From assembly GCA_049999805.1 (NCBI GenBank), contig JBNGIO010006079.1, positions 179,272 to 199,271 of the forward strand: a stretch of 20,000 nt of DNA, in the 5' to 3' direction. Made by a program: the position numbers and the translations under genes. Within the stretch, counting starts at the first letter, position 1, and each line of letters opens with the position of its first letter. Source of the stretch: Folioceros fuciformis. Its lineage: Eukaryota. The notes under the pieces were generated by a model. It had not been told where the DNA came from. It worked only from the letters and a program-made list of their open reading frames with translations, and did not search any database. Of the stretch, positions 1,456 to 20,000 are shown piece after piece.

Positions 1456-2003
1456 GTCCGTCGTCTGATTCTTGCTTGCCTTCTCAAGGCCCCGGTGTCT
1501 TACATTATGGCATGCATGTGCACTCAGATCCATGCTTCCCCGACCGTTTAGTACGAGACCTTGTGGAGTAAGTAGAGGATTCCGATTCCCTCTATGACAA
1601 TCCATGGCTGATTGTTTTTGACATGTTGGGTGGCTCTTGTTGGGTGAGATGTCTGATCTGACCCTTGTAGTCAGACTTCTCGCCGCGAGATCCTCCTTAT
1701 TCCTCCTCGCTCCTCTCGATCAACCTTTACCGGGAAGGCCTCATCGGTTATGGGATTCAACAGGTTACGAGCTCCATACCATCTCTTTCCAACAACACTC
1801 CGTCGTGGCTTCACCTGTTAAGACTCCAACATAGAGCTACCCTTAACATTTCTGGTCATCGGAACGCAAGAGTCCTCAGTAAGCAGCGGCAGGGACGTCA
1901 CTACACATTGCATTCTGTTTTCCCTGGGTATGACGCAGACCATGGGTGGCCGCTTATCTTGAAGTGCAGCCTGGAGTGTGCTAGCGGGGCTTCACATTGG
2001 ATT

Positions 2004-5000
2004 ATGGGGAGTACGAAAAATGTTGTTGGGTCCATCAGCGCTGGCAGAGGGAGCGTTCTCAGTGATTCACATCAACTAGGGGCGGATACTTGGGCTGTGC
2101 TAATCTCAGGGTTTGCCAATTCCGGGCAAGCTAGACAGGCTCTGGAAATCTACGAGGAAATGCGGCAAGATGGAGTTGAGGCAAAGCCACATACCCTTGT
2201 GGATTTGTTGAAGGCTTGCACTTGCTTGTTGGACTTGAAACGTGCCAAGCGGATTCACGCAGACGTGGTAAGAAGTGGTCTCGAGACAGATTTGTATGTG
2301 GGCACGATGCTTGTAAATACTTACGCGAAATGTGGAAGCGTGGAGAACGCTAGGCGGGTGTTTGAGGAAATGCCCCATCGAGATGTGGTATCCTGGAATG
2401 CCATGATAACGGGGTATTCCCAGATGGGCAAGGGTGAAGAGGCTTTGAACCTGTATACAAGGATGCAACAGGAGGGTGTGGTCCCCACTGACAGAACATA
2501 TGTCGGGGCACTAAAGGCTTGCAGTAGCATAGTAGAATCGAGGGAGGAAAACGGTGGTGATCTGACGCTTGTTAGAGAACGATGCCTGGATACTGTGAGG
2601 GCAATTCATGGTGCGGTCCAAAAGGGTAGGTATGAGTCGAATGTGTTTGTGGGAAACATGCTAGTGGATGCGTATTGCAAATGTGGGAGCCTTGAGGATG
2701 CTGAACGGGTGTTTGAAGGAATGCCTGCTCATTCTGTCGTTTCCTGGACTGCCTTGATGTTTGGGTATGCCCAGACGGAACAAGGTGAAGAGGCTTTGAA
2801 ACTGTATAGGCGGATGAGAGAGGAAGGTGTGGTTCCCGACGACCGAGCATATGTCAGCGCACTCAAGGCTTGCAGTAGCATTGCCGAATTGTGGGAAAGC
2901 AATGGCAATGATGGACTATCGAGAAGGCAACACCTAGAAACTGTCAGATCCATTCACTCTGATATTCGCAGGGGAAAGTTAGAGCTGGATGTGTTTGTGG
3001 GAAACATGCTAGTTGATGCGTATGCAAAGTGTGGGAGCTTGCAAGATGCAAGGCAGGTGTTTGAGAAAATGCCACATCGTGACGTAGTTTCTTGGAACGC
3101 TCTGATCTTGGGGTACTCCCAAGCAGACGAGGCTGAGAAGGCTGAGGAGGCCTTGCAGTTGTACACACGCATGCGACAAGAAGGTGCCAGTCCTAACAAC
3201 CGGACGTACGTTGGTGCACTGAAAGCTTGCATTGTCATCGGAGGATCAGGAAATGGGATTGTTAAAGAAAAATGCATGGAAACTGTGACAGCAATACACG
3301 CAGACCTTGGCAATGAGAAGAGTGATTTAGACAAGTTCGTAGGGGCAATGCTGGTGGATGCATATGCGAAATGTGGGAGTCTGGCCAATGCCAGGTTGGT
3401 ATTTGATAAAATTCCTCATCGTGATGTAGTGGTGTGGACCGCCATGATTTTGGGATGTGCACAGATGGAGAAGGGGGAAGAGGCTTTACAGCTCTTTAAT
3501 CAGATGCAAAAGGAAGCCGTGATCCCAAACGAGCGAACATATCTTGGTGCACTCATGGCTTGCAGTAGCATTGCAGAACGTGAGAACACAGAAGGCAATG
3601 CTGAAACACTCCTTAAACAAAATTGTTTTAGAACAGTGAAAGCCATCCACACAGATGTTGAGAGGGCCGGGCTTGAGTCGAACCGGTTCTTGGGGAACAT
3701 GCTAGTGGATGCTTACTCCAAATGTGGGAGTCTGCAGGATGCTAGACGAGTTTTTGAAAGCATGCCTCAACGTGACGTGGTTTCATGGAATTCCATGATC
3801 ATCGGCTGTGCCCAGATGGAGAAGGGTGACGAGGCTTTGCAGTTGTTTGCAAAAATGAAACAGGAGGGCGTCGTCCCAAACGACCGAACATACGTAGGTG
3901 CCCTCAACGCCTGCGGTAGTGTGGCCGCTCTGGAGAAAGGGAAGGAAATTCATGCCCAGATTTTAAACGCTGGCTTGGACGCTGGCTCCTTCATGTGTAA
4001 CAGTTTGATAGATATGTATGGCAAATGCTCGAGCATGGAGGTTGCCCGGCAGTTGTTTGAACTGATGCTCGTCAAAGATATCGTGGCGTGGAATTCCTTG
4101 ATAGGTGGGTATGCCAGACAGGGGGAAAGTGAAGCTGTCTTCGAGCTGTTTGACAGGATGAGGCAGGAGGGTGTACAGCCCAACGAGATCACGTTTGTGG
4201 GTGTCCTCATTGTATGCAGTCATGTGGGTCTGGTGGACAGAGGACAGCAGTACTTCGAGGCTATGAGCAAGGAATTCGGCCTCACTCCTACTATCCAACA
4301 CTACAACTGTATGGTGGATCTGCTCGGCCGTGCAGGCCAGGTATGCAAGGCCATGGAGACTGTGATGACGATGCCCGTCCAGTGTGACAGTGCAGTCTGG
4401 AAATGTGTCCTTGGGGCATGTCAAAAATGGGCAAACGTGGAGCTTGGAAGGCAGGCATTCGAATATGCTACCAGGTTGAATGCAAGTGATGCTGCACCCT
4501 ATCTTCTAATGTCAAACATCTATGCTGCAGCTCACATGCCGGAGGAGGCAAGGAAGGTGCGGGCCATGCGAGTGAACTCACAAGCAAGGAAGGAACCAGG
4601 ACGCAGTTGGTGGATGGATATGTGCGGAAATGCCCACGTGTTCGTAGTCGGGGATCAAATCTCTCCAAACCAACCTAAACCTGTATGCCCAATTGGTACA
4701 ACTTCTGTAGAGAATGAACAAGAACACATACCAGTCGGGAAATTCTCTCTGTGTTGTAGGAGAAGAAGAAGCAGAGTGACATACTTGCATTGTCATATTC
4801 GTTCAATCACGGACTTATCTCTTAGTAAAGGAGGAATTCCTTATTCTCGACTACCCGTCCGCTACCTATGTTCTGGGATCCCAAACGTGTTTCATTCTTT
4901 CTCCGTCGGTCCTTGTCATAGGTGTGTGCCTGGATTCCTATTCCTACGCAAGCAATCAGTAGGCCTTGAGATTCGCTTAACTCCGACCAATTCGATTGGT

Positions 5001-5006
5001 CCTTGA
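2004..5006 (+). CDS. PLS-class pentatricopeptide repeat protein (organellar RNA editing factor): 21 PPR motifs, E1, E2 and a truncated WW-type DYW/E+ region
   Basis: Continuous ORF, open from 1908, first ATG at 2004. Six P-L-S triplets start at 2082 (VVSWNAMI.GY, TYVGALKAC, NMLVDAYAKCGS...A..VF..MP.RD). They are followed by P2-L2-S2 (EITFVGVL..CSH.GLV..G, HYNCMVDLLGRAG), E1 (VW..VLGACQKW.NVELG), E2 (Y.LMSNIYA) and the PG box EPGRSWW at 4593-4613. The true start or an upstream exon is uncertain. Confidence 0.93.
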   Translation: MGSTKNVVGSISAGRGSVLSDSHQLGADTWAVLISGFANSGQARQALEIYEEMRQDGVEAKPHTLVDLLKACTCLLDLKRAKRIHADVVRSGLETDLYVGTMLVNTYAKCGSVENARRVFEEMPHRDVVSWNAMITGYSQMGKGEEALNLYTRMQQEGVVPTDRTYVGALKACSSIVESREENGGDLTLVRERCLDTVRAIHGAVQKGRYESNVFVGNMLVDAYCKCGSLEDAERVFEGMPAHSVVSWTALMFGYAQTEQGEEALKLYRRMREEGVVPDDRAYVSALKACSSIAELWESNGNDGLSRRQHLETVRSIHSDIRRGKLELDVFVGNMLVDAYAKCGSLQDARQVFEKMPHRDVVSWNALILGYSQADEAEKAEEALQLYTRMRQEGASPNNRTYVGALKACIVIGGSGNGIVKEKCMETVTAIHADLGNEKSDLDKFVGAMLVDAYAKCGSLANARLVFDKIPHRDVVVWTAMILGCAQMEKGEEALQLFNQMQKEAVIPNERTYLGALMACSSIAERENTEGNAETLLKQNCFRTVKAIHTDVERAGLESNRFLGNMLVDAYSKCGSLQDARRVFESMPQRDVVSWNSMIIGCAQMEKGDEALQLFAKMKQEGVVPNDRTYVGALNACGSVAALEKGKEIHAQILNAGLDAGSFMCNSLIDMYGKCSSMEVARQLFELMLVKDIVAWNSLIGGYARQGESEAVFELFDRMRQEGVQPNEITFVGVLIVCSHVGLVDRGQQYFEAMSKEFGLTPTIQHYNCMVDLLGRAGQVCKAMETVMTMPVQCDSAVWKCVLGACQKWANVELGRQAFEYATRLNASDAAPYLLMSNIYAAAHMPEEARKVRAMRVNSQARKEPGRSWWMDMCGNAHVFVVGDQISPNQPKPVCPIGTTSVENEQEHIPVGKFSLCCRRRRSRVTYLHCHIRSITDLSLSKGGIPYSRLPVRYLCSGIPNVFHSFSVGPCHRCVPGFLFLRKQSVGLEIRLTPTNSIGP

Positions 5007-5780: not shown

Positions 5781-7075
5781 ATGACGGCCATTTCCGCCTC
5801 CATCAGCAGCTCCACCTTCGCAGGCCAGTCCGTGCTCAAGGGCGCCAGCGAGCTTTCCCGGAAGGTTCATGGCGGCAAGGCCGTTGAGTCGAGGATCACC
5901 ATGAGGAGGACAGCCAGCTCCAAGCCCGACAGCATCTGGTAGCCCTGTTTACTTGCTCCTCAATTTGCTGCAGCTGTGCACTGTAGTCTTTCGATGCAAT
6001 GCAATGACCTCTTCATTCATTCTACGAGATACTTGCCTCCGCGCAATGGATTCTCCACTTTGATTGCATCCCAACGTTTCCAGCTTCTTGTTTTCCTCCG
6101 TGCAGTAGATTTTCCCCTCTTCTTGCTCAGGTTAAAGGTCTACGTATTCACCGCCTTGACCTTTGCGCAATGGACTCTCTTTTCTATCTACTCTTTCTCT
6201 ATCTGTTGTGGCGTAGATGCTATCTACAATGAGCTTATGCCCTTGGCTGCGTTATACTCGCGTTCAAGTGCTTTGCTCCTCCTCAATGAGCTGCGTTTGT
6301 TACCCTCTCACCTAGACCATGGGATGCAATCGTCCAGACCTGTTCGTTCTTGAATGCATCGAGCTAGCCAGCCATGAGACATGCAACGCGATCTAAATCA
6401 AGGAACACGGATCTTGCTTGTAGGTACGGCCCAGACAGGCCCAAATACCTGGGCCCGTTCTCCGGCGAGCCCCCGAGCTATCTGAAGGGAGAATACCCCG
6501 GCGACTACGGCTGGGACACAGCCGGTCTGTCGGCCGACCCCGAGACCTTCGCCCGGAACAGGGAGTTGGAGGTCATCCACTCTCGCTGGGCGCTTTTGGG
6601 AACACTAGGAATTGTGACCCCTGAGATTTTGGCGCTCAACGGGGTGCCGATCCAAGAACCGGTGTGGTTCAAGGCAGGCGCTGTCATCTTCTCCGAGGAG
6701 GGGCTGAATTACCTCGGTAACCCGGCTTTGATACACGCGCAGAGCATTCTAGCGGTGCTGGCTGCTCAGGTGATTCTCATCGGCGCCGTGGAAGGTTACC
6801 GCATTGCAGGTGGTCCCTTGGGCGAGGTGACAGACCCTCTCTATCCCGGGGGCGCCTTCGATCCTTTGGGCCTAGCAGACGATCCCGATGTCTTCGCCGA
6901 GCTGAAAGTGAAGGAGATCAAGAATGGCAGGCTGGCACAGTTCTCTGCCTTCGGATTCTTTGTGCAGGCCATTGTAACTGGCAAGGGCCCCATCGAGAAC
7001 CTGTTGGACCACCTTGCCGACCCCGCCAACAACAATGCCTGGGCTTACGCTACCAAGTTCGTGCCGGGGAACTAG
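5781..7075 (+). CDS. Lhcb2: Major light-harvesting chlorophyll a/b-binding protein of PSII (Lhcb2/LhcbM-like); join(5781..5938,6424..7075), 269 aa precursor
   Basis: Exon 1 encodes a Ser/Ala-rich transit peptide and [14 protein letters not shown]. Exon 2 encodes [14 protein letters not shown]...ELEVIHSRW...AVEGYR...[10 protein letters not shown]...KEIKNGRLA...DHLADP.NNNAW. Splicing restores the WYGPDR trimerisation motif in frame (810 nt). The RRT N-terminus and this intron position are Lhcb2-like; strict orthology is not established. Confidence 0.95.
5939..6423 (+). other. GT-AG intron (485 nt, phase 2) of the Lhcb gene
   Basis: Donor TG|GTAGCC and acceptor CTTGCTTGTAG|G split the Trp codon. 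The interior is pyrimidine-rich. Confidence 0.92.
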
Positions 7076-7886: not shown

Positions 7887-7982
7887 AACTATGGATTGAA
7901 GCAAGTAAACAGCCATGGACAGCCTGTGCAAGGGAACAACCATGGACTAGTGCAAGTGAACAGCAATGGAATGTTGAACAGC
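7887..7982 (+). repeat. Degenerate tandem repeat, unit about 24-27 bp (CATGGA..GCAAGTGAACAGC-like), about 4 copies, cut off by the LTR
   Basis: aactatggattgaagcaagtaaac / agccatggacagcctgtgcaagggaac / aaccatggactagtgcaagtgaac / agcaatggaatgttgaacagc. Confidence 0.6.
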
Positions 7983-8171
7983 TGAGATTATAAACAGTAC
8001 CAAAGAAGCAAGGGCAGAAAGGCAATATCAATCATTATGTGTAAGAAGACCTACAAATATGTCAAGGGGCATAAGTAGTTATAACTGCTAGTCTATCCCT
8101 AACTACCTAAGATGTAACCCTAAGTACATACTAACAATGTATATAATAAGTAATTATTATTTTTCCTAACA
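7983..8171 (-). repeat. 3' LTR (189 bp)
   Basis: Matches 14581-14769 at 185/189 positions by manual alignment, with no indels. TG...CA ends. Confidence 0.96.
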
Positions 8172-8181
8172 CTCCCACTCA
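8172..8181 (-). other. Polypurine tract
   Basis: Minus strand TGAGTGGGAG immediately precedes the TGTTAGG start of the 3' LTR. Confidence 0.85.
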
Positions 8182-8395
8182 TTGTGTACGTATGTCTTAG
8201 CGATACGCCCACCGAACCTGTCCAGAATAGAATAACCCAAAATCGTCCACTCAAGTGTACCAGCAGAACGGGTTCTCTGCACGCGTACAGCAGTGACTGT
8301 CCCGTGCGACATAAAATTCACAGCGCCCAGCCGCAATTCGCATCCCTAATCTCTGCATCAGCTGGACAGAGTTGGAGCATCCACAGCTGGTGAAG

Positions 8396-9349
8396 ATGGC
8401 GAACGATGGCGCGTCCAGGACTTCTGCTCGTCAACAAGACACCACAGTCTTCAAAGAGGAGATCACAGAGAAACGCCAGCTGCCACACACCGCTACGTCG
8501 ACTACAGCACCACCTCGAAACACAGTCCAGGGGTTTGCATCAGCTGCAGAGGAGAGACTGCCCGCTTGAGTGGTAGAGTTCCTTGCACCACGTCCAGTTC
8601 AGCCAAAAGCTCCAGAGTGCATCTGTGAGGCCGAAGCTCTCTTGTGCCCTCGACACGGCAAAATTCCAAAATGGGTGCAACAGTCAGGCTTTGAAGGCAA
8701 CTCAGCGCTGCTGGTGGCCAGTGTGCAGAATTCCAGGAGTCTGCACCTGAGGAACCTGTTGACGCTCCCACTTTTGCTCACAAGCGCTTCTCACCGCGTG
8801 GTCCTTTGAATGCAGTGAAAGCTCTACCACAGGAGGAGGACGAATACATCATGTTGCCTACGCCTCACAACCCAAGACCCTTCACACTGCCTAGAGGAAA
8901 CCGGACCAGGACTGTGAGGTTGATAACAGACGGCAACGGGATCAATGACCCTCTCACTCCTTAGACATACACCTGTATTGTGACTGGAATTACAATGATC
9001 AGAGAGGACTGGTTCAAGTGGGGTGGAGAGCACGGAAACTTCATATCATTTTACAGTAAGTCACTCGCTCACCTCTGAATTGGTTTGCACACTATTGCTG
9101 TGCCTTGAGCATAAGCTGTGAACTTACAACCTAACTACAATGTCTGAACAGAGAATGCATGAGGAGGCTGGAGTGGAATATCCTATGGAAGACGAGGACA
9201 CAGATGAAGAACCAACAGACCACAATTTTGACTCCAACTTTCAGGAACTCCTTAGAAGGAATCAAAATGAGGACAGACCTAATCTGTTCTTTGGTGAGCC
9301 AGATAACAGTGGCTCAAACTCCGATAACAATTCTGTGTCTAATTTCTAA
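8396..9349 (+). pseudogene. Possible degenerate antisense extra ORF(s) in the Copia 3' internal region
   Basis: ATG 8396 (AAGATGGC context) opens a frame to 8809 with one internal TGA (LPA*VVEFL, plausibly W) and a CxC-x7-CPRH motif. An acidic segment ends at 9349. Continuity between the pieces is unclear. Confidence 0.4.
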
Positions 9350-9416
9350 GTTATGAAATGCCAACATCTGTGTGTGACTCTGTGACACTTGCTGCAGTCA
9401 GGTGCTGCAGAGCTCT

Positions 9417-11365
9417 CTATCTTACAAGGTAAGAGGAGTCAAGGAATCCTATGGCTTCTTTGAATTGCACATGTTTCCCCTTAGGTAGAGCCTTCGTTAA
9501 AACATCTGCAGCATTCGAATCTGTAGGGATATATTCGAGATGCACCTGTCCAGAAGATACTGCTTCACGAATGAAATGATGGTGCACTTCAATATGTTTT
9601 GTCCTCGCATGGAAGACTGGATTTTCAACCAGAGCCAAGGCACCTATGCTATCACAGTGAATTGTAGTAGGCTGCACCTGCTCTTGACCCAAATTTTTTA
9701 GTAGCCTCCGGAGCCATATGGCTTCCTTCGCTGCTTGTGTAAGAGCATAATACTCTGATTCAGTCGAGGACAACGAAACTGTGGTTTGCTTTTTCGAAGA
9801 CCAGGTTATGGCACCGCCTGCCAGAAGAAAAACATAAGCCGACATTGACTTCCTGGAGTCAGAATTTGCTGCCCAGTCAGCATCACAGTACCCTATCAAA
9901 GTAAGTGGCTCTCCTTTATGATGTTGCTTTGTATAATGAATGCCGTGACTACTTGTACCCTTCAGGTACCGTAGGATCCTTTTAACGGCAGACCAGTGTG
10001 TTCTGCCAGGTTGCTTAAGGAACTGTGAAGTAGTACTAACTGGCAACGCTATGTCTGGTCTCGTGTTATTGGAGCAGAAAATCAGCGAGCCAACGGCCTG
10101 TGCATAAGGTACGTCCTGCATTTCCTGTTTTTCTGAATCAGTCACTGGTGAATGCTCCAGTGTGAGTTTACTACCTGCTTCCATAGGAGTTGCAGCAGGT
10201 TTAGCCTCCGTGAGCTTATACTTATGTAGCATATCAAAGATGTATTTTTCTTGATGGATAACCAGTGTGCCACTGGACTTATCTCGCAGGAGTTGAGTAC
10301 CCAAACAGTAAGAGAGTTCCCCAACATCCACCATATCAAATCTGCCAGATAAGAGACCTTTAACTCGGTTGATACCTTCAAGATTAGTACCAAGTAGAAT
10401 ACAGTCGTCTACGTACAAAGCTAACACCACATAGCCTGTCTCCTGTTGCAGGAAGTACACATTAGAATCTGCATCACTCTTCTTGAAGCCGAGGTCACGT
10501 AGAAACTCATCAATGCACTGGTACCAAGCCCTTGGTGACTGTTTTAGACCGTAGATAGTTTTCAATAGTCTGCAGACCCAGTCCTCACGTCCCTTAGCTT
10601 CATAACCTTCTGGCTGCTGCATATAGATCTCTTCTTCCAGCTTACGATGCAAAAACGCAGTCTTCACATCCATTTGATGGATGAACAAGCTGAAAAATGC
10701 AGACATAGCAAACAGGGCACGTAGGGACTGTGCCTTAACAACGGGGGAGAAAGTGTCATTATAGTCGAGCCCTGGGACTTGAGAGAAACCCCTAGCCACA
10801 AGGCGAGCTTTGTACCTCGCTATAGTTCCGTCAGCCTTATACTTGAGTTTAAACACCCATTTGCTGCTGACAATCTTCCTCCCCTTAGGCGGGGGACAAA
10901 GCTCCCAAGTCTGATTGTGGATAAGAGAGTCATACTCGGAGGTAATAGCTGCAATCCAATGACAAGAGTCGGGACCTGTGACTGCGTCCTCGTAGGATTG
11001 AGGTTCATAGCCAGGTTGGACAGTGACATGGACAAATTCTCCCACTATCTCATTCGGGTTCACTCCCACTGCCCGAGGCACTCTCCTAGTACGCCAGTCC
11101 TTAGCCTCATAGGGTTGTTCAAGCCATTGGTCTCGTCCACGATGCACCCTTGCAGACCTTCTAGGCTGAGGAGGCATCACATACTCTACAGGGTCATCAA
11201 CAACAAGTTCAGAATCATCAGCTGGAGGGGATTCAGGCACACCATCGAAGGGATCATCTTCTTCAGCTAAATCTGAAGCAGCAGCAGGTGATCCAGGAGG
11301 ATCCAGTGGAGGAACAGGGAGAGAATCTGGTGGGAGAGCAGGAGGAGGGTCTGGTGGGAGAGCAC
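9417..11365 (-). pseudogene. Copia pol: Pro-rich linker, reverse transcriptase and RNase H
   Basis: KWVFKLK, YKARLVARGFSQVPGLDY..TFSPV, QMDVKTAFLH, YGLKQSPRAW, LYVDD, YCDADWA, SSTESEY, HARTKHIEVHHHFIRE, ADVLTKAL. Confidence 0.96.
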
Positions 11366-12346
11366 CTAATCTGGAGGATCTGTGACATCAGAAGCATCAA
11401 AAACAGGAAAGTCTACAATATCTGTAGGCTCTGACTCATCTGACTCAGTGTAAACAGGATGTTTAGGAGTGGGATAAGTATCTGCATCTGACAAATCAAC
11501 AGGGAGATCAGCAGGAGGTGTAAGGACAGAGCGCTCATCAAACGCCACAGTGCGAGCATGAGACACTTTACGAGAAACTGGATCAAACAGTTTATAACCA
11601 TGAACTCCAGGTGTGTAGCCGATAAACACATGTCTTTTTGACTTGAAAGAAAATTTCTTCCTAAGCTTGTCTGGTATATGTGCATAGGCTATACTACCAA
11701 AGACACAAAGGTGGGAAATATAAGGCTTTACTCCTGTCCACGCTTCAAAAGGAGTTACATGTGATAAGGAAGAAACAGCTATCCTGTTCTGCAAGTAAGT
11801 AGCAACTTGAACAGCCTCTGCCCAGAAACGTATAGGTAGCCTCCCCTGAAAAAGTAGAGCCCTGGCAGCATCTTGTATTGTTCGATGTCTACGTTCTTCT
11901 ATTCCATTCATATCAGAATGATAAGGAATAGTTAGCTGCCTTGTGATGCCACGTTCCTGACAGAAATCTTGAAAAGCCGAGGATAAGTATTCCTTCGCAT
12001 TATCAGATCTTAAACTCTTCAGCTTACGCCCTGTCTGACGTTCAACATATGCCAGGTATCTTTTAAAACTGTCAAACACATCACTTTTATGCTTCAGCAA
12101 CTCAGTGAATGTAAAGTGAGTTTTATCATCTTCAAAGAGAACAAAATACTTGGCACCTCCCCAACTTGGTGTGGACATAGGGCCACAAATGTCTGAATGA
12201 ACCAAGTCTAACACTTCTGTCTGTCTCCGTGGTTTGCCAGATCCAAAGTGAGATTTAAACTGTTTCCCATGAACACATGCAACACACAACTCCAAATCTG
12301 GTAAGTCAGAATCTGTAAAACCTGTAACCATCTTGTCCTTCAACAA
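11366..12346 (-). pseudogene. Copia pol: integrase, frameshifted at both ends
   Basis: CVAC of the HHCC finger, VHSDICGP, LRSDNAKEY, NGIEERR (DDE) and the GKGY-like VHGYKLFD. An apparent 1-bp deletion near 11368 (GAT TAG instead of GAT TTA GGT) shifts it out of the RT frame. Confidence 0.95.
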
Positions 12347-13845
12347 ACCATCTTGTCCATCATGGCTTTAATGTTTGGATGTCCAAGCCTGCAGTGCCAT
12401 CTGAAGGCAGCGTATGATTTACTAGATGCAGACTCCACTACCTGGGCTGATGATGGTTGGACATCTGAGACAAAATCTAGGATATACAAGTCATACAGGG
12501 GAGTACCACGAGCTATGACATCTGAAGGTGAATTCAGCCTAGTGATAACATACTCTAAACCTTCAAACAAAATGTTGTACAGACCTGTTTTTCCTAAGGC
12601 CATAGTACTAACAAGATTTTTCTTGAGTGCAGGGACATGGAGTACATTCTCTAACTCCCATGTCTTCCCGTTCTTTAGAGTAACTATCACTGTACCTATA
12701 CCTCTAATAGGTATATGAGAATTATCTCCTAGAACAACAGCATGTTGACAAGGTAACTGTCTATAACTTACAAATGACTTCTTAGAAGAGCACATATGAT
12801 TAGATGCACCACTGTCTAAGAACCACTGATTTTTGTCCTTTGACACTGAGGACAGACAAGCCACAAGCAAACCAGGTGTTGTAGCTCTTGCCACATTTGA
12901 TTCATGCTGCTTTCCTTTTCCAGCATCATCTCTTTGCTTAGCCCTGCAATCTCTAACCCAGTGACCTGGCTTGTGGCAGTAATTGCACACACCAGGCTTC
13001 TTCCCGGGCTGCTGTGAGCTGGAGCTGGAATCAGGTCGGGATGCTTGTCCCCTGCCCCTTCCAAATCCTCCACGCCCACGCCCCCTTCCTCTGCCGCGAC
13101 CTCTGCCGCGGCCAGACCAAAGTGCAGTATCACTTTGCTTATGGGATGAGCTCGACGAACCCTTGCCAGTCATATGCTTCCTGTTGGCTTCTGCTTGAAG
13201 CAGGGCTCCAACTAGCTTTTGTACAGTCAAGGATGTCGTTGCTGGGGTTGTTGCAGTTGCTGGAGTAACAGTTGCTGTTGCTTGAATACTTGTGCTCCAA
13301 GTTTCATAGCTTGGAGGAAGGGCCAACAAGAACTGTACAGCTGCTCTACTCTCATCAATGATGACTCCGCATGCTGCAAGTCGTGCTGTTGCTGCCCTGA
13401 ACTTTGCAACAAAGCTTTCAACTGACTCATTTTCTTTCATGTGCAAATTTTGCCAGTGGTTGGTGGCGGCTCCCACTGAAATCAAATCCTTTGCTTCATA
13501 GGTATCATTCAACAATGTCCAGACTTCATGTGCATGCTTGGCCATCTTGATATGAGGAATCATTTCTTGTGAAACTGAACCAACAAGAATTGTCTTTGCT
13601 TTTCTATCCTTATGACTCCATTCTAACGCATCCTTCTGCATCCATAGTACAGGGTTCGTCCCCCCTGGTGTCATCATACCAGAGGGCTGCCCAGCCAACC
13701 TTTTTGGAATGGTGCCGTCAGTGACTTCCATCAGAAGTCTTTCTTCAAGAATTGTACGAACCCTAAATGACCAAGCATCAAAATTGTGTGGAGTAAGGCG
13801 ATCCTTCTCCTGTAGGCGATCAGAGGTCTAGTCTGCTGTCGCCAT
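12340..13845 (-). pseudogene. Copia gag, protease and pre-integrase region
   Basis: ATG 13845 gives MATAD*TSDRLQEKDRLTPHNFDAWSFRV, with a premature TAG at 13830-13828 in frame with ORF 13731-12340. Contains FLLALPPSYE, a (GR)n tract, zinc knuckle CNYCHKPGHWVRDC, protease WFLDSGASNH and WHCRLGH. Confidence 0.94.
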
Positions 13846-13859
13846 TTTACTCAGCTTTC

Positions 13860-14423
13860 TTATGAAGGGAAGGACCTCAGATCAGCAAGCTGCTGTCTGA
13901 GATTAGTAATATCTGATGCATGGTTCTTCACTTCCAATTCCAGACCTACTGCTGAAACTAACTCAGATTCCCGCTGTTTCTCCAGACGATCTAAACGAGA
14001 TGTTAGAAGGTCCACACGTCTGGAAGTCTCCAAGACAGCGGACTTAACATTCAGCAGTGAATTAAGAAGTACATCAAATTGCTTTAAATCAAAGTGCTTC
14101 GAATTATCTTGTACAGGAAAAGGAAGTTGACAACATCTACAAGTAGCAGGTAACTGGGGTAATCGGCAAGATGAATCTGGTGCAAACTGCCTGCCTGGAA
14201 CTGCAGATTGATGCGCTCCCACTTGACTGGAATTATAGGTTTCAAGAAACGTCTGCAGAAACCGTACTCGCTCCTCTTGCTGTGCTTGTGAAAGCACGTT
14301 CTTGAAATAAAGGTTCTCAAATTGAACTCCGAAATCTTGTATTTCTAATGTTGGCGTCGCAAGACATCGACCCTGCCTACTTGCTGATGTCCAATGATTC
14401 CTGCAAACGCCTTTCCTCGGCAT
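13860..14423 (-). CDS. Extra 187-aa ORF between PBS and gag, with a predicted C-terminal coiled coil; function unknown
   Basis: Intact ATG-TAA ORF inside the element. Heptad-like pattern LLNSLLNVKSAVLETSRRVDLLTSRLDRLEKQ...ITNLRQQLADL. It ends 14 nt before the gag ATG, in a different frame. Confidence 0.65.
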   Translation of the reverse strand: MPRKGVCRNHWTSASRQGRCLATPTLEIQDFGVQFENLYFKNVLSQAQQEERVRFLQTFLETYNSSQVGAHQSAVPGRQFAPDSSCRLPQLPATCRCCQLPFPVQDNSKHFDLKQFDVLLNSLLNVKSAVLETSRRVDLLTSRLDRLEKQRESELVSAVGLELEVKNHASDITNLRQQLADLRSFPS

Positions 14424-14563
14424 CGTGCCGGTTCCGCATTAGCAAATGCCTATTCTGCTCTTTTCTCTAATGAGAATTATTCATAATCCAAGAAACACCA
14501 TTATCAAGTCCTCCCCACATTAAATCTAAGAGGAAGTAAAGAGCAGAAAGGCATGGATCAGCA

Positions 14564-14577
14564 TGGCTCTGATACCA
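14564..14577 (-). other. Primer binding site complementary to the 3' end of tRNA-iMet
   Basis: Minus strand TGGTATCAGAGCCA, 3 nt inside the 5' LTR end. Confidence 0.95.
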
Positions 14578-14580
14578 AGC

Positions 14581-14769
14581 TGAGATTATAAACAATACCA
14601 AAGAAGCAAGAGCAGAAAGGCAATAGCAATCATTATGTGTAAGAAGACCTACAAATATGTCAAGGGACATAAGTAGTTATAACTGCTAGTCTATCCCTAA
14701 CTACCTAAGATGTAACCCTAAGTACATACTAACAATGTATATAATAAGTAATTATTATTTTTCCTAACA
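14581..14769 (-). repeat. 5' LTR (189 bp)
   Basis: Direct repeat of 7983-8171, adjacent to the PBS. Confidence 0.96.
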
Positions 14770-15162
14770 CAGGAGATGTAACAGGAATTGCTAAGGGCCC
14801 AGGAATAGGAGGCGGCTGCAGTGGAAAAAGTGCAGAAACTGGCGCACACGTATAAGCGGGAACGAGACAAAGCTCGAAGTCGGGTGAAGGGAAAAGGAAA
14901 GGCTAAGCGAAATAGCCAAACTACGACGGAGGTAGCCGAAGAGGCGACCGGTCAGAGAGAGACCACGCCGGTAGAGGAAAGCCTAACCAAGGTAGAAGAG
15001 GCAGCAACTATCGAAGAGCCTGCAACCGGCAGAGCTGGAATGGCAACCCGCACCAGGAGGACGGGGCAGGGCAGAGCGGCATCTAGAGGGATGGAGGATC
15101 TCCCAGTGCCACTAAAGAGCAGAAGACAGGCAGTTTGGGATAGCCCACGGGAGGAGGGGTAA
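14770..15162 (+). pseudogene. Remnant of a coiled-coil/basic/low-complexity accessory ORF, 5'-truncated by the Copia LTR
   Basis: Reads QEM*QELLRAQE*EAAAVEKVQKLAHTYKRERDKARSRVKGKGKAKR... from the LTR junction. The TAA and TAG stops are consistent with CAA/CAG deamination. Confidence 0.55.
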
Positions 15163-15951
15163 GCACCTCATCCGCAGCAGAAGGCCAGATTGTATTGCAG
15201 CATCCGGATGAGGCAACTTATGTTCCTGGCCTTTATGTGGATGGGGACCGTGTGCTAAACTTAACTGTCCATGTGCGTGTGGAACTAGGAGGGACAAGGA
15301 CCTACTGCCTGCAACTGAGGACTCGCAGGGGATCCTTCTTCCACTATTGTTGAGTGTGGAGATTGCCCCCTTACTATTCGAAGGCAGTCTTGGAGGAATT
15401 AAAGGGGGAGGAAGCACGCACATGGGTGGAGCGAGAGCCCGTGATGGTCCTCAGCAATAGGCGAATGGAGGGAGGAAGGAGCACCCCTCAACGAGGCCCA
15501 CCCATGCCGCCACTGGAAGGGTCAAGCAGCAGTGGTGAGGTGGAAATCTTGTGGGAGGATTTGTTTGACCAAAGGTGAGGGAGGAGGGCTCGAGGTTGGC
15601 GGGCGAGAGGAGCACGACGACCGGATAGGAGGCAAGCGCGGCGATAGAATAGGCCATAGTTATTACATCTTAGAATAGTATACTGTAGGATCTGGAGAAA
15701 ATGCTTTCTTGGACCTAATGCCACTCATAATTAAGAGCGCTTGCCTGTTCGCAGACTAGAATTAATGGCGGCTGCGGACCCGCCATCGCGTACAAGAGGC
15801 CTGTTGGCGCCTCACTGAGCAGTGAGAAATTGACATTCCAACCTGTGGGACCTTGGCAATGGTCGCTGCAGGATAGGAAGATTCGGGCAGATGAGTGCAT
15901 GCAGCGTTCCCGGGTGAAGGTGTGGGCGATTTCTCTGCTCCACGACGGGGG

Positions 15952-16523
15952 TATCGGGGATGAATCGGGGGAACATCTCGCTGAGTGGAAGGCAAACTTC
16001 CCCTATTCCTGGTAATCTATGGTGTGTGTCGCAATAGGAGTGAAGGGGAACGAACCCGCCCTATGCGGAGTGGAAGGAGAACGATCCTTCCCTTATTCCC
16101 TGGATCGACAGAGCTGTGACTTGCGGTTGAGGTGAGGGGGACGAATCCGCCCATGAGCGGAGTGGAAGAAGGGGTGCCTGCTTCCCTTATTCCCTGACTC
16201 TTCAACTGCTCTTCAAATACAGTGGTGAGAAGTGAGCTGAGGTGAAGACTGACTATGCGTTATTGTCGAGGGAGGGAAACGAATCCACCGACTCACGGAG
16301 TGGAGGGAGATTTCCTCCTTCCCTTATTTCCCGATTGTCGGTTGCAACCTAGTCCTAGTGTTGGTGTGAGTGAGTGTTGAGATATGATCGTGTAAGAAGG
16401 TGAGAAGTGAAGGAACGAGTGAGTCGAGACGAAGAAAAGTGAGTCACATCGTGGCCTAGGTGAGGGAGACGAATCCGCTGACCCACGGAGTGGAGGGGAA
16501 GTTTCCCTTCCCATATTTCCTGA
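15952..16523 (+). repeat. Five dispersed copies of a ~60-nt motif GGGRRAY-GAA-YCC/TCG..GA-GT-GGARG..TTCC-CHT-ATTYC, a predicted three-way-junction RNA
   Basis: Copies at 15952-16014, 16045-16101, 16136-16195, 16274-16332 and 16464-16521. The junction nucleotides are conserved; the stems vary but keep pairing. Confidence 0.8.
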
Positions 16524-17221
16524 ACTATTGGCGGCGAACAAGTGTGCTGTGAGACTGAGTGTTTGAGGAGAGAACTAAGATTGAGACGAGATTGCTGGAG
16601 ATTTCTAGGACGCTGTGAAACACTGTTAAGAGTTAGTGGTGTGAAGAATCGCTGAGAAACCACTGGGGAATCGTGGACGCTACTGAGGGTTGGAGATGTT
16701 TGGGAGTGAGTTTGTGAGGAGTAGCTGTGCGTTGGAGGTTGGGTGTGTGCTGAAAGCACTGTGTGGGTGTGAAGTGTGGGGGGTGGTCGCCCAACAGGAC
16801 CGGTTTGTTAAAGTGTGTATCTGTGGGTGTGAGGAGTGTTCAACAAACCCGACCCGCGACTCAGGGGATTCTTGGCAGAAGCCCGTGGGTAGAAACCCGC
16901 GGTGGTACCTGCGCCGACATATGTTAGTTAGGGCTTTGGGTGGGACCCACCACGGTAGTGGAACCCGCTATTAGTTGTGGAAACCCCAATCGGTCGTGGA
17001 GGTGCGGATGGTCGTGGAGACCCCAACCGCAGTTGTTGAGTAGGGACCAAAGTTGTAGAGCTGGGACCGCGGTAGCTAGACTAACTGGGGGTAGTGGTAG
17101 TTGAACTGATAGGTAGTAAGGCAGTAGTAGACAAGGTTTGACCTAGGCAAGAGTCAGTATTAGAAGAAATCTATGTTACTTGGCACAAATCATTCCCTTG
17201 GGATCGAATCCCACGGCTACA

Positions 17222-19282
17222 ATGACATAGAGGGTTTGTGTGGACCTCGCGATGTCCTTGGACACAATATTTTCCTCCACATACTGTATGTACAGAATAG
17301 GGAGGCTCCTTCCACTCATGCATGGGTCAACAAATTCGAGTAGAGCGACGAGGTGATGGGGCTACCTTGGCTGATTCAAGCTCTACAATGGGTGTAGTGA
17401 TAGGCTCAACTAAAGAAGTGTCTGTGTTAGGAATAACTAAAGAGTCACTTTCATCACAAGGGTCTGCTGAAGATGGTGGAGGTGTTGGAAGGTGCAGCAC
17501 TTCTGAAACCTTTCATCTTCGCCATCATCATAATTGGAAACCGAAACTATTTCCGTTGACTCCTAAGAAGAAGAAGCATCCTTGTCGTCAAAGAAACTAA
17601 CCTTATCAGTATCTGTAAGGGCTGAGTCTTCGATGCCATGAATAAAAGAAGGAACAGGGGTAGCATCCAGAAGCAAGGCAACAGTATGATGGCGAAGAAG
17701 AGCAGTGTCGTGGAAAACCACACTCCGAGATAAAGTAAGTTGATGGGTGACAGGGTTGAACAACTTATAGCCCTTCACCTCTTTTGAATAGTCGAGAAAA
17801 ACATGTCTGGATGCCTTGGGATCAAGCTTGGAACGCAGTGCTAGAGGAATGAGAGCATAGGCAGGGGCACCGAAAATTCGTAGGTGTGGAACTCGGGCTT
17901 CTTGCATGTCCATCTTTCAAAAGGGGTCACGGGACCAAGCTCCTTTGTTGGCAGTCGATTCTATACATAGTTGACGGCCATCAAAGCTTTGGCCCAATAC
18001 CCAAGGGTAAGTCCAGCAAAAGATAGAGAAGCCAAAGTAGATTCCTATAAAGTTCTATTTTTGCGTTCCGAGAAAGCATTCTGCTCTGGAGTATAGGGAA
18101 CTGTCAACTGGTGAAGGATTCCTTCCTGTGCATAGAATGATGCAAATGCATGACTGGTGTACTCACCACCATTGCCCATTCGCAGAATTCAAACCTTACA
18201 AGAAGTCTCGAGTTGAGCATAGCGAACATAGGACTTGAAGCAGTCAAAAGCTTCACTTTTGTGTCGGAGTAAGAAAACCACATAGTATCTGCTCCACTCA
18301 TCGATGAAGGTCAAGAAATAGTCTGCTCCTCCAAAAGAGCTGGTGGACATGGGACCACATATGTCGCTATGCACAGTGTGAAGCAAGCCATCAGCACGGC
18401 TAAGGGCCATATCCTTAAAGGGCAATGAATGTGCTTTACTCAATTGATAGGCTTCATAGAAGGCATTCTTATCGAAAGAGAATTCCAGAGGCTCATGATA
18501 ACTCTCACCTTTGACAAGAGAATTGAGATGTTGGAAGTTGACATGTCTAAGATGACGGTGCAACAATTGTGTGGAGGGTACCTCTGTGGTATGAATTGAC
18601 TGAGTAGTACCTATTACAATCTTGACGTTCAGGAGGTATAAGTCATGAGAAGGTGAGCCTGAGAAAAGATCATGCCCTAACCTGGAGCTTGTGACATAAC
18701 ACCCTTGCTGATCAAAACACACTTGGCAGTGATGTTCCTGTGACAACTTTAGGACAGACATCAAGTTCTTAGTCATTGAAGGGACATAAAGAACATTTGT
18801 GAGTGTAAGTCTAGAAGAGTTAGGCAAGGAAACGATGGCTGAGCCTGAGCCTTTGATGGAAAGTCCACTATCGTCTCCCAGTAAGACAAACTGTTTTGCA
18901 TTAGCAGCAAGAGTGAAAGAAGAGAAGGCATGCCTATGAAAGCAAATGTGACTTGTGGCTCTAGAGTCAAGAAACCATGTGTCATATTGTACTTGTGTAG
19001 ACGACAGGCAAATTGCCATGATAGTGGGCTGCTTAGCCTTGCTAGTGGTGACGTTGCTTTCTGGAGGATGATCGTGTCTAGGCTCTCCTCCTTTCTTCTT
19101 ACGGCAGTCTCGTTCATAATGGCCAGGTATCTTGCACCAGTTGCAAACAAAGGTCTTCTTAATGATCACATCACGTTGTGGGTTTGTATAAGAACCACGT
19201 CCTCTACCACGCCCACAAAAGCCACCTCGGCCTCTTGATGTGAAGAGTACTCTGGTGTTGCTGGAAGTGGAGCCCTTAGGCT
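17222..19282 (-). mobile_element. Older degenerate Ty1/Copia fragment (gag C-terminus, protease, integrase, linker), truncated at both ends
   Basis: RGRGG tract, zinc knuckle CNWCKIPGHYERDC, WFLDSRATSH, VHSDICGPM, RSKLDPKA...KGYKLFNP and RRSTR. Several frameshifts and stops. RT, RNase H and LTRs are absent. Confidence 0.92.
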
Positions 19283-20000
19283 TGTGAAAACTCCTTGTGT
19301 GCTCTTCAGATATGAGGGCGCCAATTACTTCCTCGAGGGTTACCTTCGGTGGCTGGCCAGTTGTGGAGGCAAAACCCCGGGCACTGATTGCCGACGGGTC
19401 CCACCTTTAGTGGCCACACTTATCCCACTGTCGTTGAGACATTGGGTTTCGTTCCCACGAAGGAGCGATGGGGTTCCTTGCTGCTGTGGATGGAGGGTCG
19501 GACTTGATCGACTCGATGACGGATTCGAGGGCTCCCCTCCAGCTCCGATCAGGCGTAGGACAGGCCTCGCTGTCCGGCGGTCAGCTGCACGTCTTTCGGT
19601 GCCCACAAACTCACTCCAGTCACTACAACGACTCTAACCTCTCAGATCTGCGTCTTCCTTCACTCACTTCACTCACTCTCTCGCTCCAGCACCAACACCA
19701 GCAACTACTAGCAACCAGCAACGACACCACTACCTTCTACACTTCCCTACGGACTCCTCCTACCCGGCGAGAGTCACTAGACTAACCCCAAACAAAAGGA
19801 AGAAGGGAACACACTCCCCTCTTGGGTATCTCCTCCCCACAACCTTACCAGACGCCATGAGACATGGTCGGCCTACAGCACTTGACCAAGCAAGGAACAA
19901 GAGTGGATAGGTTGAGAGAAAGACACACCCTTTACAATCAAGAGCTAGGGGCAAGCCCCTACACCCTGGTCATTACACCTTGTGATCCTACCAGACACTA
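19283..20000. mobile_element. Putative LTR/non-coding end of a further retroelement inserted in Copia-2 gag; runs off the window
   Basis: Gag similarity stops at about 19283, where TGTGAAAAC begins. Composition shifts to a C/A-rich plus strand (G/T-rich minus strand, like 16500-17200 on plus). No convincing ORF. Confidence 0.45.

Follow-up and report, generated by a model that had tools for sequence, protein, structure and literature searches.

Among the phenomena described at the DNA level, the hypervariable tandem sub-repeats of the Tat/Ogre lineage of plant LTR retrotransposons come closest to the present case. The 3′ untranslated region of these elements commonly contains tandem repeats that differ in sequence and length, for which illegitimate recombination or abnormal strand transfer is held responsible (PMC7004042). 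The array described here, which lies in a 20,000-nucleotide stretch of DNA (the window: the whole stretch that was analyzed), resembles these sub-repeats in that it occupies a non-coding stretch of a high-copy plant repeat and the number of its units is variable. Unlike the Tat/Ogre sub-repeats, the units of the array share only a 65-nt core; the cores are separated by unrelated spacers of 26-123 nt, and TRF detects no array. Furthermore, no retroelement domain or gag-pol is present on the plus strand near the array, and its position in an LTR element is putative. Another process at the DNA level is replication template switching, which is reported to create and maintain hairpins (PMC8794818).

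The nearest working analogy at the RNA level is a type of retroviral packaging signal that is built on three-way junctions. In the HIV-1 core encapsidation signal, the junctions are reported to offer unpaired or weakly paired letters to nucleocapsid, and the sites act together (PMC7395439). What the array might share with this signal is the idea of several junction sites acting jointly. Unlike the HIV-1 signal, to which it has no sequence or family relation, the array consists of five near-identical modules and not of one composite leader fold; no gag is linked to it and its binding partner is putative. Mobile repeats are a frequent setting of hammerhead and other small ribozymes. Like the hammerhead, the modules have a three-helix junction, GAA before the second helix and a mobile-repeat setting. 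Unlike the hammerhead, they do not contain CUGANGA, the helix after GAA opens with U-A and not with A-U, and there is no Rfam match. The xrRNAs of flaviviruses are tandem three-way junctions, which protect downstream RNA from 5′-3′ decay. The array is similar in that small three-way junctions stand in several copies in an untranslated region; however, the modules have neither an Rfam match nor evident pseudoknot partners, and their host is a plant genomic repeat. Finally, the tandem G.A/A.G under P1 of modules 3-5, which in module 3 lies between P1 and an outer stem, recalls the GA motif of the kink-turn and box C/D RNAs. In module 3, however, the loop beside the GA pairs is 1 nt versus 2 nt, and not a 3-nt bulge versus none, and modules 1 and 2 are without GA pairs.

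The window is plant nuclear DNA. Its plus strand encodes a PPR gene (1908-5006) and a chlorophyll a/b-binding gene (6374-7075). Within the PPR gene, at 2283-3937, four copies of a 263-nt unit were observed, which are 69-73% alike and spaced by 351 and 690 nt; these point to internal duplication of PPR-motif blocks. The minus strand carries an apparently complete copia element (7980-14770) with 190-nt LTRs (7980-8172 and 14578-14770; 98% alike), a primer-binding word at 14566-14577 and open reading frames for gag-protease (12340-13731), integrase (11366-12346) and reverse transcriptase (9417-11240). Pfam recognizes gag, protease-barrel, integrase and RVT_2 domains in this element, and its ends show no matching 5-bp target-site duplication. 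The minus strand also carries a fragment of a second copia (17327-19367), which runs from gag at about 19367 to the end of the integrase at about 17695, and the open frame extends to 17327. Its protein is 35-44% identical to that of the first copia, and neither a reverse transcriptase nor a 3′ LTR was found after the integrase. Upstream of the gag of this fragment, the region 19640-19800 is CT-rich and contains words of the CTTCACTCAC type; its minus strand has a GTGAG-rich flavor like that of the plus-strand spacers of the array, and no alignable similarity was found. The array lies between the two copia elements and outside both of them, and its modules are on the plus strand. Therefore, the statement of the first-pass annotation that the array is in a retroelement is unsupported by the local annotation: the array is in neither copia of the window, and the repeat that hosts it is not classifiable.

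This host repeat is the segment 14776-17177, an unclassified repeat to which no strand was assigned. It is cut on the left by the copia LTR, the end of which is at 14769, and on the right by an element of about 107 bp (17175-17281). Contigs of two DNA runs (X1 and X2) from one sample were placed on 14500-17700 at a likeness of at least 80%. The number of contig pieces placed was 986 for X1 and 855 for X2; most of them were less than 95% alike, and pieces started at 14776 and ended at 17177. Because so many contig pieces over 14776-17177 are less than 95% alike, the segment belongs to a repeat family that is present in this organism in many diverged copies. In the window, the host element has no recognizable gag, pol, LTR pair or terminal repeats, and none of its 13 open reading frames contains a Pfam domain. 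Two overlapping, orphan open reading frame remnants, whose frames differ by one, are located on the plus strand at 14809-15162 and 15144-15353 and stop about 600 nt upstream of module 1. Near 15155, most contigs are one base longer or shorter than the window, and there are hints of a longer plus-strand frame in the host family, which ends about 600 nt before the array. Word-index searches found no homologue of the 117-aa and 69-aa open reading frames. HMMER gave three matches for the host open reading frames (InlB B-repeat, SH3_5/amidase and CHU_C/laminin-G; E 2.6e-7 to 9.8e-7); these are unrelated bacterial repeat proteins and the scores are summed weak repeat matches, so they were rejected. 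Because neither open reading frame piece has a Pfam domain or a credible homologue, the host repeat stays unclassified. In another run (X5), which we guessed to be RNA, module 3 and the 3′ half of module 4 had relatives on a 1054-nt contig, and most of 14500-17700, including 17175-17281, had no cover.

Two further observations were made in and beside the host repeat. Some 260 nt beyond module 5, the stretch 16779-16803 has six consecutive G and then TGGTCGCCCAACAGGACC; the G-run and TGG (16779-16788) could mark a polypurine tract with the beginning of an LTR in the host repeat, or its tRNA primer-binding site. The element of about 107 bp has a summed contig depth of 9247 (X1) and 6375 (X2), where its neighbors have tens to hundreds. 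The loose contig ends on either side of it are diverse (at 17281, 28 contigs with an agreement of 0.39), TA is present on both flanks, and the element contains a stretch like a tRNA T-arm, GGGATCGAATCCC. We regard it as a probable SINE or MITE of very high abundance.

On the plus strand, 15951-16525 contains five diverged copies of a motif of about 65 nt, as found by reading of the sequence, by a repeat finder and in two MAFFT alignments. Module 1 (15951-16015) is the most diverged copy: it is composed of P1 (15952-15961/16005-16014; 10 bp with three G-U), GAA (15962-15964), P2 (15965-15984), GU (15985-15986), P3 (15987-16001) and CCU (16002-16004). Module 2 (16042-16105) has GGGGAA/TTCCCT as P1, GGAAGGA/TCCTTCC as P3 and CCGC/GCGG as P2, plus C.A at the position where the other copies have U-A. 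In module 3 (16132-16199), GA/GA is present under P1 (16136-16141/16190-16195), P2 is TCCGC/GCGGA and P3 has nine positions with one A.G mismatch. Module 4 (16270-16336) likewise has GA/GA under its P1 (GGGAAA/TTTCCC); its P2 is just TCC/GGA, followed by A.C and C.A, and its P3 is GGAGGGAG/CTCCTTCC. Module 5 (16460-16525) again has GA/GA under P1 (GGGAGA/TTTCCT), with TCCG/CGGA as P2 and GGAGGGGA/TCCCTTCC as P3. The modules start 90-190 nt apart, with spacers of 26-123 nt. Across the five aligned copies, the junction linkers GAA and GU do not vary, and C-(C/T/A)-T, followed by A, forms the third linker. Thus, the arm pairs listed in the first-pass annotation are all present as written, including the A.G in P3 of copy 3 and one G-U in P3 of each of copies 4 and 5; the linkers that it described were confirmed in the alignment, and the tandem GA/GA that it saw in copies 3-5 is present directly under P1.

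A covariance model was trained on copies 2-5 only, with 16 core pairs, and both strands of the 20 kb were searched with filters off. The training copies scored 75-84 bits (75.1, 80.5, 82.9 and 83.6 bits for modules 2, 3, 4 and 5, respectively) and copy 1 scored 27.7 bits (E 2.8e-5); the next-best score in the window was 12.1 bits. Building such a model had been proposed as a check, and it found the held-out copy 1 in the window. A strict motif pattern gave four matches in the window versus none in 200 shuffles. Five homologous copies are thus present at the place that had been claimed, on the plus strand only, and the repeat greatly exceeds chance expectation. When 14770-17600 was compared with the window by self-blastn, three motif-motif pairs were the only matches besides the self-match (62-68 nt, 73.5-82.5% identity). 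By semi-global alignment, ten motif pairs gave z values of 4.4-22.1, and fifteen pairs of spacers or flanks gave -0.7 to 2.6. TRF reported no tandem array at the modules (none of its 11 rows in the window). The loops vary among the copies, and the junction letters and helix bases are kept; the claim that loops and spacers diverge freely was borne out by the variable loops and by spacers that cannot be aligned (z -0.7 to 2.6). Because the homology stops at the 65-nt core and the spacers are unrelated, the core appears to be under constraint, and we rate this as the strongest sign of constraint. Thus, the array is a kept core among unrelated spacers and not an ordinary head-to-tail tandem repeat. 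The repeat and its shared, foldable three-way-junction architecture are real.

The pairing was examined across the five copies. From the model-fitted alignment, RNAalifold recovered the identical 16 pairs. Of the 79 helix cells, 96.2% pair, versus 46.8-77.8% in six controls in which the partners were slid by 1-3 columns. The background pairing with slid partners (47-78%) is high because, in P1 and P3, the 5′ arms consist of purines only and the 3′ arms of pyrimidines only. With this composition, partners that are swapped or slid still pair at 70-78%. The covariation score was reached by 1 of 500 shuffles, although, as the tool warns, related sequences can exceed shuffles without structure. In an arm-swap test, the 5′ arm of each copy was paired with the 3′ arm of every copy (120 permutations per helix). 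The true assignment was matched or beaten by two permutations for P3, four for P1 and 36 for P2, with a joint fraction of 4.7e-4; in P3, the mean number of pairs was 7.4 of 9 within a copy versus 6.6 with arms swapped. Several double changes preserve pairing. Position 4 of P1 is G-C in three copies and A-U in two, one position of P2 is G-U in copy 1 and C-G in the other copies, and the foot of P1 is C-G in copy 1 and G-U or G-C elsewhere. Positions 7 and 8 of P3 are A-U and G-C in copy 4, and G-C and A-U in its closest relative, copy 5. Pair-breaking states are found in P2 of copy 2 (C.A), copy 4 (A.C and C.A) and copy 5 (C.A), and in P3 of copy 3 (A.G). Only 3 of the 16 core pairs are changed on both sides, in four cells, and two of them depend on the alignment of copy 1. 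The word covarying in the first-pass annotation is stronger than these counts. Overall, the five copies give moderate support for a selected fold. Selection on the three-way-junction fold is plausible on the basis of five related copies, which are too few for a real covariation test.

The predicted folding energies differ among the copies. In copy 1, the minimum free energy (MFE) fold is the three-way junction. In copy 2, the junction lies 1.3 kcal/mol above the MFE and accounts for 0.32 of the ensemble, and in copy 3 it is kept even within the fold of the whole 601-nt array. The junction fold of copy 4 has -19.5 kcal/mol versus an MFE of -26.6 kcal/mol (7.1 kcal/mol worse), and that of copy 5 has -20.3 versus -26.1 kcal/mol (5.8 kcal/mol worse). 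In these two copies, the junction fold takes at most 0.02 of the ensembles, and the MFE fold pairs the 5′ purine run with the P3 pyrimidine run. Thus, the junction is the MFE fold or near it in copies 1-3 only. Taken singly, the copies have modest z-scores (plus strand, -1.0 to -2.0; minus strand, -0.2 to -1.7), and the minus strand is weaker in all five copies. The whole 601-nt array (z -0.51 plus, -0.50 minus) is no more stable than shuffles. Additional outer stems had been described on copies 2-5. Around module 3, 16123-16132 pairs with 16200-16209 (outer stem 16123-16209, plus strand) in the MFE folds, and this flank duplex (-17.0 kcal/mol) was equaled by 1 of 500 shuffles. As good a duplex was found in 24 of 500 shuffles for copy 5, which is marginal, and in 318, 386 and 402 of 500 for copies 1, 2 and 4, respectively. 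Thus, the outer stem stands for copy 3 and marginally for copy 5, but not for copies 2 and 4.

The contigs also contain relatives of the modules. In contigs of X1 and X2, joints between modules were found, for example at 16348>16458, 16364>16450, 15819>16125 and 16151>16065. Between modules 4 and 5, some contigs jump 109 or 85 bases; in one contig 305 bases are skipped, which removes modules 1 and 2, and another returns from module 3 to module 2. These varied module-to-module joints show that the module number varies among the family members. In the relatives, the printed letters of P2 include TCCA..TGGA and TCCAC..GTGGA, which give A-U where the window has G-C (copies 2, 3 and 5) or A.C (copy 4). 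As read from these letters, the exchange between G-C and A-U passes through a non-pairing intermediate, and it is independent of the five window copies.

Known families were searched for the motif. With Rfam 15, no match in the window reached the gathering score. In 15700-16800 there were five matches at E<=10, the best of which, on the minus strand, scored 17.3 bits (gathering 40); the best snoRNA near-miss scored 11.4 bits versus a gathering score of 42. ARAGORN found no tRNA gene in the window, and no tRNA was among the Rfam matches at E<=10. The first-pass annotation did not recognize the family, and the absence of a gathering-score match in Rfam agrees with this. A reading of GAGTGG and CGAATCC as pol III boxes A and B was rejected: their order is reversed, and neither ARAGORN nor Rfam finds a tRNA. 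In a scan for bacterial promoters and terminators, P3 of modules 4 and 5 looked terminator-like, which is irrelevant in a plant nucleus. A pattern scan of metagenomes listed at least 118 loci; the best model scores were 23.0 bits (L061) and 20.1 bits (L075). These matches, L061 1572-1653 and L075 397-478, share a near-identical stretch and were taken as chance matches, helped by the pre-selection; for L061 the reason is that the stretch reads as a long open coding sequence. A stricter pattern had no match in viral contigs or in genome contigs. Among the 11 loci of a looser viral scan only L119 scored (25.7 bits), and it was attributed to chance since three of the six P1 pairs are broken and the copy is single. 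Thus, relatives outside this organism were found neither in the viral and genome contigs nor among the metagenome matches listed. A search of full texts in the literature found no description of the motif.

We propose, with a probability of roughly 0.4, that the array serves as a modular docking element that acts in cis as RNA. Formation of the fold in RNA, the strand, the partner and the effect are all points that we infer. In our proposal, the array would be five modules of one RNA element in a non-coding part of a plus-strand transcript, and the carrier would be a dispersed, probably non-autonomous mobile repeat. Each module would form a small three-way junction in the order P1, CGAA, P2, GU, P3, CNUA and P1′. 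The kept unpaired junction letters, together with the first base pairs of each arm, might constitute the recognition surface, and the loops and the distal parts of the arms would be free to vary. Several modules in a row may provide avidity for a binding protein. The likeliest partner would be a Gag- or nucleocapsid-like protein supplied by a helper element, or an RNA-binding protein of the host, and its binding may mark the transcript for packaging, export or protection. The number of modules might shift by recombination or by template jumps between modules. A functional module had also been suggested from the first reading. The motif-limited homology, the kept junction and helix letters, the drop upon arm swapping and the A-U of the relatives speak for it; the pairing of 47-78% with slid partners, copies 4 and 5 lying 6-7 kcal/mol off the MFE and the array z of -0.5 speak against it.

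The latter three points are shared by the main rival, a possible though doubtful explanation in which the modules are DNA-level sub-repeats of the untranslated region or LTR of a mobile element and have no function as an RNA fold. The units would then arise and vary by unequal recombination or by template jumps of a polymerase or reverse transcriptase, and what is conserved in the blocks would be DNA, such as repeated promoter or enhancer boxes. Purine/pyrimidine composition would account for the apparent helices, together with template-switch mutations, which generate and repair short inverted repeats. The variable module number among family members, the high background pairing, the lack of a thermodynamic signal for the whole array and the preference of copies 4 and 5 for other folds are all consistent with this explanation. 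The 3′ untranslated tandem repeats of Tat/Ogre provide a precedent (PMC7004042), as do the hairpins that template switching is reported to create (PMC8794818). However, a model of DNA boxes leaves unexplained why the three kept blocks are mutually complementary in a closed three-arm layout. It also does not explain why P1, the arms of which are about 50 nt apart, stays paired through an exchange between G-C and A-U, or why P1 of copy 1 stays paired through a one-base shortening of both arms. Furthermore, the array is not head-to-tail (none of the 11 TRF rows) and its spacers are unrelated. Template switching gives perfect Watson-Crick arms, whereas the array has 11 G-U. Thus, template switching is the main neutral alternative for P2 and P3, and it is a poorer fit to the long-range P1 and to the abundance of G-U pairs.

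The docking element that we propose would act on the plus strand, and plus as the sense strand of the host repeat is only a lean, in favor of which an upstream open frame has the same orientation. The frequent G-U pairs had been taken as pointing to the plus strand. In the arms, however, G-U outnumbers A-C by 11 to 4 (p=0.12), which is not significant, and 8 of the 11 G-U are in P1. An element on the minus strand, either as an antisense RNA or as a part of the truncated copia fragment on the right, is improbable. On that strand, the 11 G-U, including the 8 in P1, become mismatches, and the z-scores are weaker in all five copies. Both copia elements are on the minus strand; however, no LTR-like repeat or reverse transcriptase at 14770-17327 ties the array segment to the second copia fragment. 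On the minus strand P2 would be longer in copies 2, 4 and 5, because the four A.C become G-U, and the C.A just below the junction, which is kept in copies 2-5, would pair as G-U, too. The best Rfam near-miss is also there, although its 17.3 bits are far below 40. Among the five variants listed for module 3 in the relatives, from a table with 920 further rows, two are in loop L3, two are C>T opposite G and one is at the existing A.G. The C>T changes among these listed variants keep their pairs, as G-U, on the plus strand only.

Still less probable is an exonuclease barrier or stability element, which, like the tandem xrRNAs of flaviviruses, would shield the downstream transcript from 5′-3′ decay. 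The three-way junction, the kept junction letters, the several spaced copies and the non-coding stretch suit such a barrier. No xrRNA family of Rfam matches at E<=10, however, and inspection by eye, unscored, revealed no kept complementarity between the 5′ flank or a loop and the junction for a ring-closing pseudoknot. It is very improbable that each module is a putative small self-cleaving ribozyme of a new class, because, although the compact three-way junction, about ten kept junction letters, free loops and location within a mobile repeat resemble one, the array contains no CUGANGA (none of the 13 matches on both strands of the window falls in 15951-16525, in agreement with the earlier view that a hammerhead core is lacking), no ribozyme family matches at E<=10 and the second letter of the third linker varies (C/T/A).

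Beyond the docking element itself, we considered whether the array may represent a new class of junction-centered functional RNA, which would be multiplied in cis by a plant mobile repeat and selected for its own spread. This is unlikely. Such a class would consist of small ribozymes, of folds that block exonucleases or of sites where a retroelement protein docks with high affinity, and the assessment covers these three forms jointly.

Plant mobile elements have very few defined cis-acting RNA structures. A compact module that is kept amid decay and is present in many genomic copies would offer ready material for covariation analysis. Should the fold not be under selection, the array would serve as a caution that purine/pyrimidine arms can mimic covariation in a few repeat copies. 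The motif may be a new RNA signal. If this is true, it would help to explain by what means the RNA of non-coding or non-autonomous repeats is recognized for packaging, export or protection.
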